From the NCBI GenBank assembly GCA_964343705.1, contig CAYFJX010000005.1, forward strand, positions 66,791-130,790: a stretch of 64,000 nucleotides of DNA, in the 5' to 3' direction. This document shows positions 10,945-55,928 of this stretch, one piece after another (within the stretch, counting starts at the first letter, position 1; each line of letters opens with the position of its first letter). Origin of the DNA: an uncultured Methanosarcinales archaeon (GTDB taxonomy: Archaea > Nanobdellota > Nanobdellia > Woesearchaeales > UBA12501). Made by a program: the position numbers and the translations under genes. The notes below the pieces were generated by a model. It made no database searches and was not told the origin of the DNA. It saw only the letters and a program-made list of their open reading frames with translations.

Positions 10945-11154
10945 GGGTGTGTCCCAAGAGTCTTTCTGAGGGGTGGCACTGCCGCAAGGTTTTATCAGGA
11001 AATCTCAAGGGGCGAAGCTCCTTGACGCATCTGAGCTTTGCTCAGATTGCGGCCGAATAATGAGGTGATTTCCGTTAACACTACGAATGAATTTGAGTAG
11101 TTAACACCGCAGTGCCACCCCTCCTGCACAAAAAGCAAGATTTGGGACACACCC
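10945..11154 (+). mobile_element. 210-bp MITE-like element, copy 1 (TIRs GGGTGTGTCCCAA / TTGGGACACACCC, subterminal GGGGTGGCACTGC / GCAGTGCCACCCC)
   Basis: The reverse complement of 53706..53915 matches this copy at 209 of 210 positions. Perfect 13-bp terminal inverted repeats. No ORF inside. Confidence 0.8.
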
Positions 11155-11199
11155 CTCATTTTACTAACATTTATATACTACATAAACTTATGTACCCCT

Positions 11200-15135: not shown

Positions 15136-16402
15136 GTTCTTTAAATGCCTCACCAACTAGGTAGATAGAACCAGCAACAACAATCAGGCTATTTGGTCGT
15201 GTGATGGCACGTGCTTTGTCAAGTGCTTCTTTAACATTTTGTGACATAAGAATAACCTTGGTTTCTTCTTCTGGCAGGATCTTGTTGGCATTGTTGTAGG
15301 TGGTGTATATCTTTTCTGGTTCCTCGCTCCTGAAAAATTCAGGTTTTGTGAGGATTATTCTGGTGAAGTGGGGGAATAAGGTAGTTGTCATTTGTTTAAT
15401 GTCTTTGTTGTCCATTGCAGCAAAAACTAAGATGAGTTCATCATACCCAAGTCGCAGTTTAGCAAGTTCCTTGCACAGGGTCTTAACTCCTTGTAGGTTG
15501 TGTGCACAGTCAAATAAGAACTCCTTATTGTCTAGTTGTGCAAATTGCATTCGTCCAGGCCAGTGCACATTCATAAGTCCTTTATGTTGTTGTTCAACAG
15601 TTGTTGACAGTGACTCTATAAGTTGCATTGCACAATTTGCAACTGCAGCGTTTTGTTTTTGGTATTTTCCTTTGAGGTTAGTTTGTGCATAATCAATATC
15701 TTCCTGGTCAATTTTGAGGAGTCGGGCTTTTTTTTCCTGGCATACATTGTGCAACACAGTGAGTACTGTTTCATCGGTGTTGCTGGTAAGTACAGGAACA
15801 CCTTGCTTGATTATTCCTGCTTTTTCAAATGCAATTTTTTCAATGGTATCACCTAAGTGTTCAGTATGTTCAAGTGCAATGTGAGTGATAATGCTGAGCA
15901 AGGTGTTTTCTGCAGGGATAACATTGGTTGCGTCAAAGCGACCGCCTAGGCCTGTTTCAAGTACAACAATGTCAGTGTTGTTTTCTGCAAAGTAATCTAG
16001 TGCCATTACTGTGGTGACTTCAAAGAAGGTTTGATCAGTTCTCAGCTGAAGAAGTTTTTCTGCTCGTTGCTCAAGTTCATGATCTGAGATTGGTGTGTTG
16101 TTTATTTTGATGCGTTCATTGAACTTGATTAAGTGAGGGGAAGTGTAGAGTCCAACTTTTAATCCTGTTTGTTGGAGGATGCTAGCAAGCATTGCACAGG
16201 TTGAACCCTTGCCATTGGTTCCTGCAACGTGGATGACCTTGAGCTTTTTTTCTGGATTGTTAAGCTTGGTAAGGAGTTCAAAGGTAGGGTCAAGTCTCAA
16301 TTGTGACCCAAATCGTTTAAGTGAATATAATTCTTGTATTTTTGACATGTTTTTGGTGGGGTGAATGCAGGGTATATATGTATTGTTGTGTTGGGCTGAC
16401 AT
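15116..16402 (-). CDS. folC: folylpolyglutamate synthase / dihydrofolate synthase (Mur ligase family)
   Basis: P-loop 'VIHVAGTNGKGST', 'YTSPHL'. Mur ligase middle and C-terminal domains. Confidence 0.82.
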   Translation of the reverse strand: MSAQHNNTYIPCIHPTKNMSKIQELYSLKRFGSQLRLDPTFELLTKLNNPEKKLKVIHVAGTNGKGSTCAMLASILQQTGLKVGLYTSPHLIKFNERIKINNTPISDHELEQRAEKLLQLRTDQTFFEVTTVMALDYFAENNTDIVVLETGLGGRFDATNVIPAENTLLSIITHIALEHTEHLGDTIEKIAFEKAGIIKQGVPVLTSNTDETVLTVLHNVCQEKKARLLKIDQEDIDYAQTNLKGKYQKQNAAVANCAMQLIESLSTTVEQQHKGLMNVHWPGRMQFAQLDNKEFLFDCAHNLQGVKTLCKELAKLRLGYDELILVFAAMDNKDIKQMTTTLFPHFTRIILTKPEFFRSEEPEKIYTTYNNANKILPEEETKVILMSQNVKEALDKARAITRPNSLIVVAGSIYLVGEAFKELNIATH

Positions 16403-16553
16403 TTTGTAGGTGGGCTAGGTTCAGCAAATTCTTCAAAATCAAGGAATATTTTCAACTGCACAGATCTAGCATTTTTTAATCCGCCCTGAAGGGCGGTTAA
16501 AACTGTGCAATGTTTGATTGGTTTTTGAAACAGCCCAAGCTGAAACTAATTTT
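16402..16553 (+). repeat. about 152-nt intergenic element, copy A of a 2-member family (candidate structured ncRNA)
   Basis: About 75-80% identical to 42346..42500 in the same orientation. Internal GC hairpin CCGCCC-TGAA-GGGCGG is replaced in copy B by CCAGGCCGG-AAC-CCGGCCTGG (compensatory). Conserved TGGGCT...AGCCCA closing pair. Oligo-T 3' end. Confidence 0.5.
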
Positions 16554-16666
16554 CCCCCTTTACAAACCCATACCTTTATATAGCCCCTATTGCCTCTTTT
16601 CATCATCTGAGTGCCCCAAAGGGGAATTACAGCGCTGGCTGTATGTAAGTCTCGGGAGGACAAAAA

Positions 16667-27474: not shown

Positions 27475-27700
27475 TGGGCAAAAGAACACGCCTCTCAGCT
27501 TTTACTCACAGACAATATTAAGCACATTGTTGTCTGTTCGTAATAGTAAAGGTTGTTTGATTTATTTGTCCTTTACTAAAAAGAAACATAAAACCTTTGC
27601 TCCCTAACAAATGAAGTAGGGGGTAGTATATAAACTTTGCGTAGATATTAAGTATTATGAGCTCATTTTTGGCCTAAATAGGCGATTTTGTACATGTTTC

Positions 27701-30240: not shown

Positions 30241-30359
30241 GCCCTGGCTGGGATTTTCACCCGTACACTTTCTCTGTTGCACGAGATTTGAACCCAGATA
30301 ACGGCAAAGCCGTAACTAGATGCTCAATCTAGCGCAATACCAGATTATGCGACCAGGGC
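30241..30359 (-). tRNA. type-II tRNA (anticodon GAG, Leu; discriminator G) with a ~33-nt intron in the T-loop region
   Basis: Minus-strand fold: acceptor GCCCTGG/CCAGGGC, anticodon stem CTAGA/TCTAG, loop TTGAGCA. Long variable arm ACGGC-TTT-GCCGT. T stem CTGGG/CCCAG encloses TTCAAAT plus 33 extra nt. Confidence 0.6.
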
Positions 30360-34567: not shown

Positions 34568-35695
34568 TTATTTGTGAGTATACATAAACTGATCAATCTT
34601 GTTCCTTGCTTTTTCACGGGCAGCCTGGTGCTTTTTCAAGAAACCATTGATCTTCTCAATAAGAATTGCTTTAAGCTCACCAGAGAGCAATGCTCCTGAT
34701 TTATAATCATCATAAATCTTCTTCAACTTTTTATCATCTTCTTCTAAAAAGGTAAGCCAGTGGTAACTTGTGTCAATATCTGGATTTCCTCCTTTTTTCC
34801 GATGCTCTTCAACTGTTGGCTGGCCACCACTAAAAGCATACTTGTTAATCTTCTTCTTAACTTCTTTTGGTGTGTCTGTCAGAAAAACAGCATTGCTTTT
34901 TTGTGAAGAAGACATTTTCCCATGTGGGCTTTCAAGTCCAGGAAGGAATTTACAAAATAACAATGATGGCTTTGGGTAGCCGAGCTTTGGCATGACATCT
35001 CTGCATACGCGAAAGTGCGCATCTTGGTCAATAGCCATTGGAATTAAACAAGGCATGTTCTTTCCTTTTATTACACTGGGTAGAAATGCTGGCACAGATT
35101 GCATTGCTGTGTAAAATATTTGGCCAAGGTTGTTTTCATTAGTAAATCCAAATACTGCTCGTGCAGTTGAAAACGTGATCTTTCGTGCCACCCTACATGC
35201 TTGTTTATACATGAGATTTGCATGTTCAGTGTCAACAAGAAAATGTGTTCGTTTAGGATCAAAGCCTAATGCAATGATATCACACATGTTTTCTTCCATC
35301 CATTTCTTGCTCTCCTCAAAATCTTTGATTTTATTGAACAAGAATTTTTCCTCATCAGGAAATTGAAACCACAAGTCAACCTTGTAGGTATCTTGCAACC
35401 ACTTGGTTATCACCCAGGGGATACTGTGGCCCAGTGTGACAGGACCAGATGGGGCTCGCCCGGTGTACAGAAAAAAAGGGTTTCCTTTATCATACTCTTT
35501 AAGTACCCAATCTAAATCTCTATGGGAAAAAAAGAGCTTACGCCTCATTAAATAATGCAGATTTCCTGTCTTTTTCTTCATGTGTTGAAGATGTTTTGGT
35601 GTGATAAGTTCAGTCCCAAACTCTTTACACAGTCGATCGTAATCAACAGATCCGGTCACTTCCCAAGGTGTGACCTTTTGTTCTTTCTTTGCCAT
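34568..35695 (-). CDS. trpS: tryptophanyl-tRNA synthetase (archaeal/eukaryotic type)
   Basis: Class I motifs: 'GRAPSGPVTLGH' (HIGH-like TLGH) and 'KMSSSQ' (KMSKS). 375 aa. Confidence 0.82.
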   Translation of the reverse strand: MAKKEQKVTPWEVTGSVDYDRLCKEFGTELITPKHLQHMKKKTGNLHYLMRRKLFFSHRDLDWVLKEYDKGNPFFLYTGRAPSGPVTLGHSIPWVITKWLQDTYKVDLWFQFPDEEKFLFNKIKDFEESKKWMEENMCDIIALGFDPKRTHFLVDTEHANLMYKQACRVARKITFSTARAVFGFTNENNLGQIFYTAMQSVPAFLPSVIKGKNMPCLIPMAIDQDAHFRVCRDVMPKLGYPKPSLLFCKFLPGLESPHGKMSSSQKSNAVFLTDTPKEVKKKINKYAFSGGQPTVEEHRKKGGNPDIDTSYHWLTFLEEDDKKLKKIYDDYKSGALLSGELKAILIEKINGFLKKHQAAREKARNKIDQFMYTHK

Positions 35696-42345: not shown

Positions 42346-42500
42346 TTTTGTAGGTGGGCTAGGTTCAGCAAATTCTTAAAAATCAAAGAAGATTTTAATC
42401 ACACAGATTTAAAATTTATAATCCAGGCCGGAACCCGGCCTGGTTAAAACTGTGTAATATCAGATTGGTTTTTGAAACAGCCCAGACTGAAACTAATTTT
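42346..42500 (+). repeat. about 155-nt intergenic element, copy B of the 16402..16553 family (candidate structured ncRNA)
   Basis: Same orientation as copy A. Conserved flanks. Variant but still self-complementary internal hairpin. Oligo-T end. Confidence 0.5.
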
Positions 42501-42519
42501 GCCTTGCCTTTGTTAACTC

Positions 42520-45754: not shown

Positions 45755-46117
45755 GTTTACAGCCCGCCGGCTATAGTAAAAGACAAATTATTTGGATGCC
45801 TTTTACTATTACGAACAGACAACAATTCCATTGTTATTGTCTGTGAGTATAGTTTATTCTTGGTTTGTTTTGAATTTTTTTTGAGAAGACAGCTAGCACT
45901 AGTCAAAACCCGTCTTCAAGACTGTTATAGAAACCTAGCTACCGCCAGAAACCATTGGAGATTTTGAATAAAGTTGTAACTAAGAAAATGATATTAATTT
46001 TGCCACACATACTGATATTTTTGTGTCATAGTAGTGAATAAAGTGACACTTATATTTAAACCTTTGGTGTAGTAAAATATAAATACTCCCTCATAACTCT
46101 TTGTTTTAGGTGAGCTT

Positions 46118-53408: not shown

Positions 53409-53598
53409 TGTTTTCCCCAGTGAGTAGGAATCTGAGCGAATTTAAAAAGATTTATGGTGTGCAGGAGAATCGTTTAAATAGGGCTCTTTTCAGCAAATTT
53501 TAAAAAGAGGTTATTAAACCAAGCTAGTAATCATTCGCCCTTGTAGCATCCGCAAAAATCTTTTTGATTTTTGGGCGCTCCAAGAGCTCATTACATTC

Positions 53599-53691
53599 GC
53601 CCTTGTAGCATAGTGGTAGTGCACTGCCTTGGTATGGTCAGTAATGACAACAAAGAGGCAGAGGTCCCGAGTTCAAATCTCGGCAAGGGCT
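53599..53691 (+). tRNA. tRNA-Thr (anticodon GGT) with 21-nt intron at canonical 37/38
   Basis: Acceptor GCCCTTG/CAAGGGC, D stem GCAT/GTGC, anticodon stem CTGCC/GGCAG, loop TTGGTA[intron]A, T arm CCGAG-TTCAAAT-CTCGG. Confidence 0.75.
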
Positions 53692-53705: not shown

Positions 53706-53915
53706 GGGTGTGTCCCAAATCTTGCTTTTTGTGCAGGAGGGGTGGCACTGCGGTGTTAACTACTCAAATCCATTCGTAGTGTTAACGGAAATCACCTCAT
53801 TATTCGGCCGCAATCTGAGCAAAGCTCAGATGCGTCAAGGAGCTTCGCCCCTTGAGATTTCCTGATAAAACCTTGCGGCAGTGCCACCCCTCAGAAAGAC
53901 TCTTGGGACACACCC
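53706..53915 (-). mobile_element. 210-bp MITE-like element, copy 2 (inverted relative to copy 1)
   Basis: Reverse complement matches 10945..11154 at 209 of 210 positions. Immediately 3' of tRNA-Thr. Confidence 0.8.
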
Positions 53916-53960
53916 ATTCTTTACAGTAGGCTTATATACAGCTAGTTTTTCCAAGGATGT

Positions 53961-54838: not shown

Positions 54839-55213
54839 TCAAATTTCATCTCGGGGGATCTCTAAGTCATTAAAATCTTTGTCATAGGTTACAATTGAGG
54901 AACAATTCATTAACAGAGCAATGGTATAATGTATAAGGTCAATGAATCTTAACCTTTTATACTTCTGTCCTCTTTTCATTGCTTCGAATACAATTTTTCC
55001 GTCAACTGGGATAACTTGGAGATGGGATCGCAATACTGCCCTAATAGATTTGATTGCTGTTTCTCTATTTGTTACATTTTCAATAACATTAAATGCTTCA
55101 ATTAAATTGATTGAATCAGTGATGCCTTCTCCTTCAAGAACTTTTTGTGACTCTATCTGGTGAGGATTTTGATAAAAAGCATACGAGAGTATTGTACTAT
55201 CAATAAACCTCAT
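54839..55213 (-). CDS. vapC: PIN-domain protein (VapC toxin)
   Basis: 'FIDSTIL' (N-terminal Asp) and 'IVTYDKDF'. Confidence 0.65.
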   Translation of the reverse strand: MRFIDSTILSYAFYQNPHQIESQKVLEGEGITDSINLIEAFNVIENVTNRETAIKSIRAVLRSHLQVIPVDGKIVFEAMKRGQKYKRLRFIDLIHYTIALLMNCSSIVTYDKDFNDLEIPRDEI

Positions 55214-55449
55214 CTGAACATCCTCGCATTTAATTCTTTCATTTGTTTTGGTGTTAAGTTGTGTTTTGGCTTAATTTTTCTTGCATCTGCGAAAACTTTC
55301 TTAAGGTCTTCTCCAATGGGGGTCATGATTATTTTACCTTTTTTCACTTCCATATCAAGAGGGCTCCCTATATGTAAACTAAGTTCTTCTCTAATGTGTG
55401 CAGGAACTGTTACTTGTTGTCCTTTTGTTAATCGTACTAACATTTTCAT
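55210..55449 (-). CDS. vapB: AbrB/MazE-like (SpoVT/AbrB) antitoxin, VapB
   Basis: 'LTKGQQVTVPAHIREEL' swapped-hairpin motif. Overlaps the PIN gene by 4 nt. Confidence 0.6.
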   Translation of the reverse strand: MKMLVRLTKGQQVTVPAHIREELSLHIGSPLDMEVKKGKIIMTPIGEDLKKVFADARKIKPKHNLTPKQMKELNARMFR

Positions 55450-55582
55450 TCACCATGTATCATGAAGCATGGATCATATATAAATCTTTTGATTTTCCGC
55501 TAAAAATTTATAAACACCTACTTTAATCTCCTTCATATGGGCCCGTGGTCTAGTCTGGTATGACGCAATAAAATGAAAAAGT

Positions 55583-55655
55583 GGGTCTGTGGTCTAGTGG
55601 CTATGACATCGCCTCGACACGGCGGGGATCCCCGGTTCGAGTCCGGGCAGACCCA
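55583..55655 (+). tRNA. tRNA-Val (anticodon GAC)
   Basis: Acceptor GGGTCTG/CAGACCC, anticodon stem TCGCC/GGCGG, loop TCGACAC (C at position 33 is unusual), T arm CCCGG-TTCGAGT-CCGGG. Confidence 0.75.
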
Positions 55656-55928
55656 TTTTCATTTTACGTGCATAAAATCTTTGATTTTATTGCGTCGCAT
55701 CGACACGGCGGGATTTTGTTTTTTATGAGTCGTTCCGCAGGGTCGAACATAGTGAGATCCTGCATTGCACTATTGGGTTGATAAGGGGCGTAGCATCCCT
55801 TATCCCTGTAGTTCAAATATTGGCGCCCGAAGGGAGACAATACCTTCGAACGTCAGTGAGAAAGTCCGGGCGGGCCCATGTTTTCTTTTCAACAAACTTT
55901 ATTAATGCTAAAGCCTATTTTGTGACTA

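Follow-up and report, generated by a model that had tools for sequence, protein, structure and literature searches.

An intact tRNA-Val(GAC) gene enclosed by the ordered pieces of a second tRNA-Val(GAC) gene in a Woesearchaeota-like archaeon

Anatomy of the nested tRNA-Val locus

A 64,000 nt stretch of metagenomic DNA (contig CAYFJX010000005.1, positions 66,791 to 130,790; hereafter the window) carries at positions 55539-55878 an intact gene for tRNA-Val(GAC) that is flanked on both sides by pieces of a second tRNA-Val(GAC) gene. We refer to these as the inner and the outer gene; all features of the locus lie on the + strand. The window is archaeal, with a G+C content of ~39%, and encodes deoxyhypusine synthase and an AMP-phosphorylase-like protein. 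An initial annotation of this DNA had proposed three readings of the locus, namely a tRNA with one or more long introns that host another tRNA gene, a permuted or split arrangement, or successive partial duplications in tandem. Sequence comparison of the locus confirmed the direct and inverted repeats on which these proposals were built. The nested arrangement is real DNA and no assembly chimera, because the 481 bases spanning the locus are the same, base for base, in four independent assemblies (three sequencing runs and two assembly pipelines).

The inner gene (55583-55655) is intact, lacks an intron and does not encode the CCA end. As the initial annotation had held, it is a complete tRNA-Val gene: it matches the Rfam tRNA family (RF00005) at 55583-55655 with 57.8 bits (gathering score, 29), and the ARAGORN call of tRNA-Val(GAC) is retained at the 110% threshold. 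The acceptor stem of the inner tRNA can be extended by five further pairs (inverted repeat I3).

The outer gene is divided into four pieces (E1, E2, E3a and E3b) that are collinear and, without overlapping, together make up one complete tRNA-Val(GAC), corresponding in order to tRNA positions 1-26, 27-46, 47-59 and 60-73. E1 (55539-55565) carries positions 1-26, which comprise the acceptor 5′ strand, the D-arm and G26, and forms a direct repeat (D3) with the 5′ end of the inner gene; specifically, TGGGCCCGTGGTCTAGT (55538-55554) and TGGGTCTGTGGTCTAGT (55582-55598) are 88% identical. A tRNA-like 5′ piece had thus been correctly recognized here, although it measures 27 nt rather than 31. E2 (55695-55714) contains positions 27-46, that is, the anticodon arm with the GAC anticodon and the start of the variable region, and has an A31 x G39 mismatch. 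It forms direct repeat D1 and coincides with what had been described as a diverged Val anticodon-arm copy; residues 55688-55712 are 84% identical to 55602-55626 over 25 nt, with 17 of 18 matching in the core (55695-55712). E3a (55803-55817) provides positions 47-59, with the end of the variable region, a damaged T-stem 5′ strand and the T-loop bases TTCAAA. E3b (55865-55878) supplies positions 60-73 (T60, CCGGG as the T-stem 3′ strand, CGGGCCC as the acceptor 3′ strand, and A73), is followed by TGTTTTCTTTT, and takes part in direct repeat D2 and inverted repeat I4. The presence of a matching 3′ end with a complementary acceptor strand was likewise borne out, as AGTCCGGGCGGGCCCATGTT (55863-55882) is 85% identical to the 3′ end of the inner tRNA and the outer acceptor strands ATGGGCCCG and CGGGCCCAT are complementary at 9/9 positions.

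Three interruptions separate these pieces. Insertion 1 (55566-55694, 129 nt), located between positions 26 and 27, holds the inner tRNA between inverted repeats of 14-17 bp (I1 and I2), with enclosing arms CAATAAAATGAAAA...TTTTATTG. In the minimum free energy (MFE) structure, the left arm CAATAAAATGAAAA (55566-55579) is followed by an unpaired AGT (55580-55582), and E1 from G23 onward doubles as part of this arm. The proximal right arm TTTTCATTTTA (55656-55666) pairs with 55569-55579 and also contains the first T-tracts 3′ of the inner tRNA, whereas the distal right arm TTTGATTTTATTGCGTC (55680-55696) pairs with 55562-55578, including positions 23-26 of E1. Of the two pairs proposed to enclose the inner gene, the outer one, given as 12 bp, corresponds to I1 (GACGCAATAAAATGAAA / TTTGATTTTATTGCGTC), which extends over 17 nt at 94% complementarity with a perfect core of 13 nt; the inner pair, I2 (TAAAATGAAAA / TTTTCATTTTA), is complementary at 11 of 11 positions. 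A palindromic motif, ATAAAATC-TTT-GATTTT (55672-55688), repeats a motif located at 55480-55496 (direct repeat D4). Insertion 2 (55715-55802, 88 nt) interrupts the variable region at about position 46/47, contains TTTTGTTTTTT, exhibits only a weak motif resembling the bulge-helix-bulge (BHB) element, and has no significant structure (fold z -1.06). The third interruption, at 59/60 in the T-loop (55818-55864, 47 nt), is structured (z -4.33) and forms a strong hairpin with a relaxed BHB. The whole 341 nt stretch folds into a structure more stable than those of shuffled controls (z -4.82).

A TATA-box-like element, TTTATAAA (55507-55514), resides 25-32 nt 5′ of the outer G1, and its spacing is like that upstream of an intact Val(GAC) gene from a related genome (L007, described below). 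On reading the sequence, we presume this element to be the promoter of the whole unit, as its position agrees with the standard archaeal distance from TATA box to start site. No A/T-rich box was found in the sequence 20-35 nt upstream of the inner G1, and TTTATAAA is the only suitably placed TATA-like box. Therefore, the inner tRNA probably uses the promoter of the outer gene. Oligo-T runs are termination signals in Archaea, and several T-tracts (T4, T4, T4 and T4-G-T6) follow the inner gene in TTTT-CA-TTTT, GATTTTATTG and ATTTTGTTTTTT.

Relatives of the outer gene and its capacity to yield a tRNA

In our comparison with other Val genes, we used as references an intact tRNA-Val(GAC) (L007), an intact tRNA-Val(TAC) (L008) and a tRNA-Val(TAC) with a T-loop intron (L009), which come from two Candidatus Woesearchaeota metagenome-assembled genomes (MAGs). 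Among 185,579 species genomes, the first 26 nt of E1 are matched exactly (26/26) only in these three genes. When joined, the outer pieces are identical to L007 at 65 of 76 positions, and the D-arm, the anticodon loop and the T-loop TTCAAAT are the same; the inner gene is identical to L007 at 57 of 75. The outer sequence is therefore best regarded as the resident Val(GAC) gene of this lineage and the inner gene as a more divergent copy, not as the template from which the outer pieces were copied. The pattern exceeds chance: four pieces are collinear and non-overlapping, and their joined product is both called by ARAGORN and closely similar to L007. These observations do not support two of the original proposals. 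The pieces follow the normal 5′-to-3′ order, which speaks against a permuted or split arrangement, and partial tandem duplications would not readily account for pieces that lack overlap, sum to exactly one tRNA and are nearer to L007 than the inner gene is.

The interruption at 59/60 is a real T-loop-type intron. It shares both its position and its 3′ end (...GAAAG|T) with the intron of L009, and T-loop introns occur at the same position in three other loci (L075, L076 and L112). Such an intron had also been reported at position 30241 of the window, where tRNA-Leu(GAG) (30241-30358, - strand) indeed carries a textbook example of 33 nt with a perfect hBHBh′ motif (CTGGG TTCA AA|T ... TGAA AA|T CCCAG). 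This gene was missed by both ARAGORN and Rfam.

A broader survey with the Val D-arm pattern yielded 120 metagenome loci and, together with the loci of the genome scan, 124 Val gene starts, all of which belong to ordinary or intron-bearing Val genes. On visual reading, an interruption at 26/27 is present in none of the 124 sampled genes with this D-arm. A search of Joint Genome Institute (JGI) metagenomes for a Val D-arm followed after 10-40 nt by a second Val 5′ end gave no match, and neither 5′ half occurs in viral contigs. BLAST comparison of insertion 2 and the upstream region with all fetched loci returned chance-level matches only, and Rfam searches at permissive thresholds found no match in the inserts and no other tRNA in the window.

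We also note a feature of the anticodon loop that is shared by four Val(GAC) genes. The loop reads UCGACAC in the inner gene (55614-55620), in the outer gene (55700-55706) and in L007, and UCGACAU in a metagenome locus (L117). In all four genes, position 33 is C in place of the near-universal U.

The joined outer exons do not form a canonical cloverleaf in which all four stems are paired. In the ARAGORN drawing, the T-stem opposes TGTAG with CCGGG to give U.G, G x G, U.G, A x C and G-C, and in the anticodon stem pair 31-39 is A x G. Alignment with the inner gene and L007 reveals that the T-stem 5′ strand of E3a reads CCTG-TA-G where CCCGG is needed; when aligned to the inner gene, the lesion looks like CCCGG altered by one C-to-T transition and a 2 nt insertion of TA. 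ARAGORN reports the joined product as tRNA-Val(GAC) at its default threshold and at thresholds up to 100% only; the call fails at 105%, and both the inner gene and a repaired control are still called at 110%. A hidden micro-exon that restores the T-stem was ruled out by enumerating all combinations of prefix, micro-exon and suffix from the anticodon arm to the T-stem 3′ strand, none of which gives a 5-bp T-stem.

BHB motifs, strict or relaxed, are likewise not found at every exon-intron boundary of the outer gene. The initial annotation had suggested folding 55539-55878 to look for them. At junction 1 (26/27), the MFE fold is a continuous, perfect helix of 13-17 bp without bulges, and the sole conformer with a strict BHB leaves two extra nucleotides after G26 and lies 24.3 kcal/mol above the MFE. 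The best candidate at junction 2 has 3 nt bulges and pairs 4/4 in helix b, 4/5 in c and 3/5 in a, but its product would have a variable region several nucleotides too long, and a match of this quality is about what chance would provide given the 270 position pairs tried. At junction 3 (59/60) there is a relaxed motif (b 3/4, with a 7-bp inner helix) whose outer helix is the broken T-stem. As controls, tRNA-Leu(GAG) of the window and the Val genes in L021, L025, L067, L075 and L076 all display full BHB motifs with 5-bp outer helices.

Several other products were considered and rejected. A chimeric tRNA composed of E1, inner positions 27-59 and E3b folds perfectly, but the BHB it requires is absent; moreover, it would rival the inner T-arm and duplicate the same anticodon. 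An alternative register of the anticodon stem (CGTCG/CGGCG) after the strict-BHB junction gives an 8 nt loop. On reading the sequence of 55715-55864, we saw no features of C/D-box or H/ACA RNAs.

The outer gene thus combines homology to L007 over its full length with lesions that break conserved structure, as in a tRNA relic. These structural models argue that it would be unable to give a canonical tRNA, and the lack of significant structure in insertion 2 and the T-tracts within the putative introns point the same way. The proposal of a tRNA whose introns host another tRNA gene was therefore correct in its anatomy, which consists of ordered exons with interruptions at 26/27, ~46/47 and 59/60, but probably not in its function, owing to the T-stem, the A31 x G39 mismatch and the lack of a BHB at junction 1.

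Origin of the arrangement and alternative explanations

The explanation we favour, with a probability of roughly 0.6, is that the resident tRNA-Val(GAC) gene was recently inactivated and was functionally replaced, in place, by the inner gene using the outer promoter. The outer sequence would be the resident gene of a Woesearchaeota-like (DPANN) archaeon, which originally carried a T-loop intron as its relatives do. A 129 nt segment with 14-17-bp terminal inverted repeats and a complete, intron-less tRNA-Val(GAC) would have broken this gene at 26/27, after which the guest gene would have taken over both function and promoter. Subsequent decay of the host gene would account for the 88 nt of insertion 2, for the C-to-T change and 2 nt insertion in the T-stem, and for the change of C31 to A; the few lesions and unmutated ends appear consistent with a young relic. 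The inner gene could have arrived by transposon-like or break-repair capture, or could be a tRNA acquired by an older intron. In an alternative history, insertion 1 may have begun as a spliceable intron.

For expression of the locus after such a replacement, we envisage that transcription would start ~2 nt before the outer G1, directed by the TATA box at 55507-55514. E1 plus the next 17 nt would then constitute a 44 nt leader of the inner tRNA, leader and trailer would pair via the inverted repeats, and the inner tRNA would be freed by RNase P-type and tRNase Z-type cleavage. Transcription would mostly end at the T-tracts within 55656-55725, and no spliced outer tRNA would be made.

The insertion sites and their surroundings bear on how the locus may have formed. 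Insertion 1 is located at the centre of a palindrome, GACGTC, with CG left at both ends (GACG|(CG)TC), and insertion 2 at the centre of GGG(G)ATCCC(C), with AT left at both ends. The sequence TTT[C/G]ATTTTA is duplicated within the right arm of insertion 1. In addition, 19 nt at 55674-55692 (AAAATCTTTGATTTTATTG) are exactly identical to 35318-35336, which lies within an open reading frame (ORF), on the opposite strand, for a class-I (Trp/Tyr-type) aminoacyl-tRNA synthetase. This identity (BLAST E ~1e-4) belongs to one of only four repeat families of at least 19 nt in the window, and may represent captured filler DNA or chance in A/T-rich sequence. As a separate matter, a transcript of the Val locus would run antisense to the synthetase mRNA.

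Elsewhere in the window there is a 213 nt miniature inverted-repeat transposable element (MITE) in two near-identical copies (10945-11157, + strand, and 53706-53917, - strand), with 13-bp terminal inverted repeats (GGGTGTGTCCCAA / TTGGGACACACCC). Each copy is bordered by a 9-bp target-site duplication (CTCATTTTA and GTAAAGAAT), and the element was recently mobile; its interior is the starting point of two ENA contigs (L130 and L131). One copy begins 15 nt past tRNA-Thr(GGT) (53599-53691, + strand), a gene that ARAGORN reports as 'tRNA-??? (ggta)' and that has an intron of ~21 nt at the canonical position with a relaxed BHB. A 5′ fragment of this tRNA, consisting of a 17 nt direct repeat ATTCGCCCTTGTAGCAT (a 4 nt leader plus positions 1-13), precedes the intact gene by 61 nt (53533-53610), and the 44 nt between the two copies hold the palindromic AAAAATC-TTTTT-GATTTTT. 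It is the second tRNA 5′ fragment beside an intact tRNA in the window. Because of the insert-site palindromes, the duplicated arm, the 19 nt identity, the MITE and the tRNA-Thr fragment, small DNA insertions and patchwork repair near tRNA genes can therefore be considered active in this genome.

A number of observations weigh against replacement of the outer gene by the inner one. The tRNA-Thr intron of the window and the T-loop intron of L009 also fail a strict BHB scan, which indicates that relaxed motifs are tolerated in this lineage; the missing strict BHB is thus weak evidence when taken by itself. Runs of T5 occur within the introns of related genes (L025 and L076), and so the T-tracts at the Val locus support termination but do not prove it. 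The outer ends are unmutated (E1 matches at 26/26 and the acceptor 3′ strand is intact), which is compatible with a very young relic and with selection alike, and the inverted repeats join E1 and E2 just as the helix of an intron or a split tRNA would. Our view that the outer transcript would not be spliced derives solely from structure. A second copy of insertion 1, which would prove mobility, was not found in the 64-kb window. Finally, a search via the neighbouring proteins led to no related genome carrying the locus that could supply covariation or bear on the order of events. An 810-aa LamG-like neighbour protein has no exact record, no relative in GTDB species genomes and only two distant homologues, one of them on a contig with bacterial-looking, non-syntenic gene content, and a 289-aa TPR protein near the locus matches only itself.

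An unlikely alternative to replacement is that no ancestral outer gene or introns ever existed, and that the pieces are recombination scars, with partial copies generated around the one real tRNA-Val by integrase att-site duplication, repeated template switching or tandem duplication. Fragments of tRNA 5′ ends beside intact tRNAs are known integration borders (PMC3293823), a tRNA-Thr 5′ fragment is duplicated in the same window, and the 19 nt identity to a coding region, together with the duplicated TTT[C/G]ATTTTA arm, resembles patchwork repair. Scars of this kind are difficult to reconcile with pieces that do not overlap, stand in the correct order and amount to exactly one tRNA, that are closer to the Woesearchaeota Val(GAC) than the inner gene is (65/76 versus 57/75), and that retain a T-loop intron of their own. 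Duplication of an att site is further disfavoured because only 17 nt separate E1 from the inner gene, no integrase or recombinase ORF or other element is present between the repeats, and the outer pieces downstream would be unexpected. We consider it still less probable that the outer gene remains in use as a three-intron tRNA gene whose first intron hosts a second tRNA, such that one transcript would yield the inner tRNA-Val and a second, spliced RNA through splicing endonuclease acting at relaxed BHB motifs plus RNase P and tRNase Z. The spliced product could be either an atypical tRNA-Val(GAC) whose T-stem is weak or a structured RNA in a tRNA frame, held together by the outer acceptor helix. 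Much of the anatomy agrees with such a nested gene, including the collinear and complete exons, the correctly spaced promoter, the perfect acceptor stem, a T-loop intron that is well structured and resembles functional ones, the 4/4 central helix with 3 nt bulges at junction 2, and the fold stability of the 341 nt stretch; the joined product passes the default ARAGORN threshold, and the organism has non-canonical introns, of which that of tRNA-Leu(GAG) hints indirectly at a splicing endonuclease able to accept them. Set against these are a T-stem with two mismatches and two G.U pairs among five, which no choice of exons repairs, the A31 x G39 mismatch, and the lack of a usable BHB at junction 1. 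A junction-2 candidate that overextends the variable region and a T6 tract inside 'intron 2' are also unfavourable, and with the same anticodon in both products there is no obvious benefit.

The two remaining possibilities carry much less weight. In a split-tRNA-like scheme, which we regard as very improbable, leader and trailer would stay paired via the 13-17-bp helix and the acceptor stem and would be trans-spliced after excision of the inner tRNA, in the manner of Nanoarchaeum half-tRNAs; as a variant, the 3′ part could have its own promoter near 55672-55691. Complementary sequences directly beside E1 and E2 do exist, A/T-rich boxes are present at 55671-55691, and helices of this type are used by split tRNAs (PMC4033280). 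Nevertheless, the junction has no bulges, the T-stem is broken, A31 opposes G39, and the collinear order leaves no permutation. An assembly or chimera artefact is scarcely credible, for although the data are metagenomic and the locus has short internal repeats, the sequence is identical in all four assemblies and its repeats are far below the k-mer size (k127 according to the contig names).

Some further features of the window deserve brief mention. The palindromic motif AAATC-N(2-6)-GATTT occurs six times (53556, 55482, 55675, 35319, 42380 and 1893) where 1.17 occurrences are expected, and three of these copies adjoin tRNA pieces. A role as a general tRNA promoter element was rejected, as the motif is absent upstream of related Val genes in metagenome loci; it could serve in protein binding or recombination, or form a small hairpin. 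A gene pair for VapC (PIN domain) and an AbrB/MazE-type antitoxin (54839-55449, - strand) immediately precedes the Val locus and separates it from the TPR-like gene. A repeat family of ~165 nt is represented by two copies (16402-16565 and 42346-42510, both + strand) that are ~85% identical and have a long closing helix; the inner hairpin differs between them on both sides (CCGCCC...GGGCGG versus CCAGGCCGG...CCGGCCTGG). The family has no Rfam match, and may represent either a structured RNA not yet annotated or a further MITE. A 25 nt exact inverted repeat also links 27526-27550 (+ strand) with 45802-45826 (- strand).

Comparison with known disrupted tRNA genes

Disrupted tRNA genes of Archaea, whether multi-intron, split or permuted, are central to the debate on the origin of tRNA introns and fragments. 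A review and full-text searches of open-access literature gave no mention of a tRNA gene inside the interrupted body of another tRNA gene. Were the outer gene spliced after all, the locus would provide the first example of a tRNA gene nested in a tRNA intron. As we interpret it, the Val locus looks like a case caught in the act, in which an insertion broke a resident tRNA gene and brought with it a working copy of the same tRNA, so that the host gene could decay while its promoter was taken over. This would support the view that some 'introns' begin as DNA insertions, would illustrate one way to replace a tRNA gene without ever losing its function, and could inform models of how introns are gained and tRNA genes turn over. 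It also carries a warning, as software that joins tRNA halves (SPLITS and multi-intron modes) would call a three-intron tRNA here, probably wrongly.

The multi-intron tRNA genes of Thermoproteales and DPANN archaea resemble the outer gene in their collinear exons and in their non-canonical interruption sites, including 59/60. One or two such introns are present in related Woesearchaeota-like Val genes (L009, L076 and L112), and introns of ~90 nt occur in L025 and L075. The Val locus differs from these in that its joined exons give a non-canonical cloverleaf, junction 1 has no BHB, and one of the interruptions carries a second tRNA gene. A different kind of guest is known from Haloferax and other Euryarchaeota, where the intron of tRNA-Trp contains a C/D box small RNA, the host tRNA is functional and the intron has a canonical BHB. 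A functional small RNA inside the interruption of a tRNA gene and a shared promoter are common to both cases, but the guest at the Val locus is a tRNA and its host appears to be dead. With the MITE of the window, insertion 1 shares the form of a short insert with terminal inverted repeats. However, the MITE has two copies and 9-bp target duplications, whereas for insertion 1 the repeat at its palindromic site amounts to 2 bp (CG) at most, and there is no other copy in the window.

Of the cases described, the tRNA-Thr(GGU) locus of Caldiarchaeum subterraneum comes closest. A 5′ fragment there precedes an intact gene for the same tRNA, and the cause was proposed to be insertion or recombination of DNA, by which a mobile element left the fragment behind and also introduced an 'intron' (Sugahara et al. 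2012, PMC3293823). There, the spacer is 1.8 kb long and encodes a recombinase, and the downstream gene is reconstituted; at the Val locus only 17 nt intervene, without a recombinase, and the rest of the fragmented gene extends 3′ of the intact one. In the split tRNA genes of Nanoarchaeum equitans and Caldivirga, the parts are joined by a helix of at least 12 bp formed by adjacent sequences (PMC4033280). A joining helix adjacent to tRNA parts is present here also, but the parts lie in cis ~130 nt apart, there is no leader-exon BHB, and the product would be defective. Permuted tRNA genes differ in that their 3′ half is upstream of the 5′ half, which is not so at the Val locus. When viewed alongside these systems, the locus would appear to function as a tRNA gene whose leader and trailer are long and structured.

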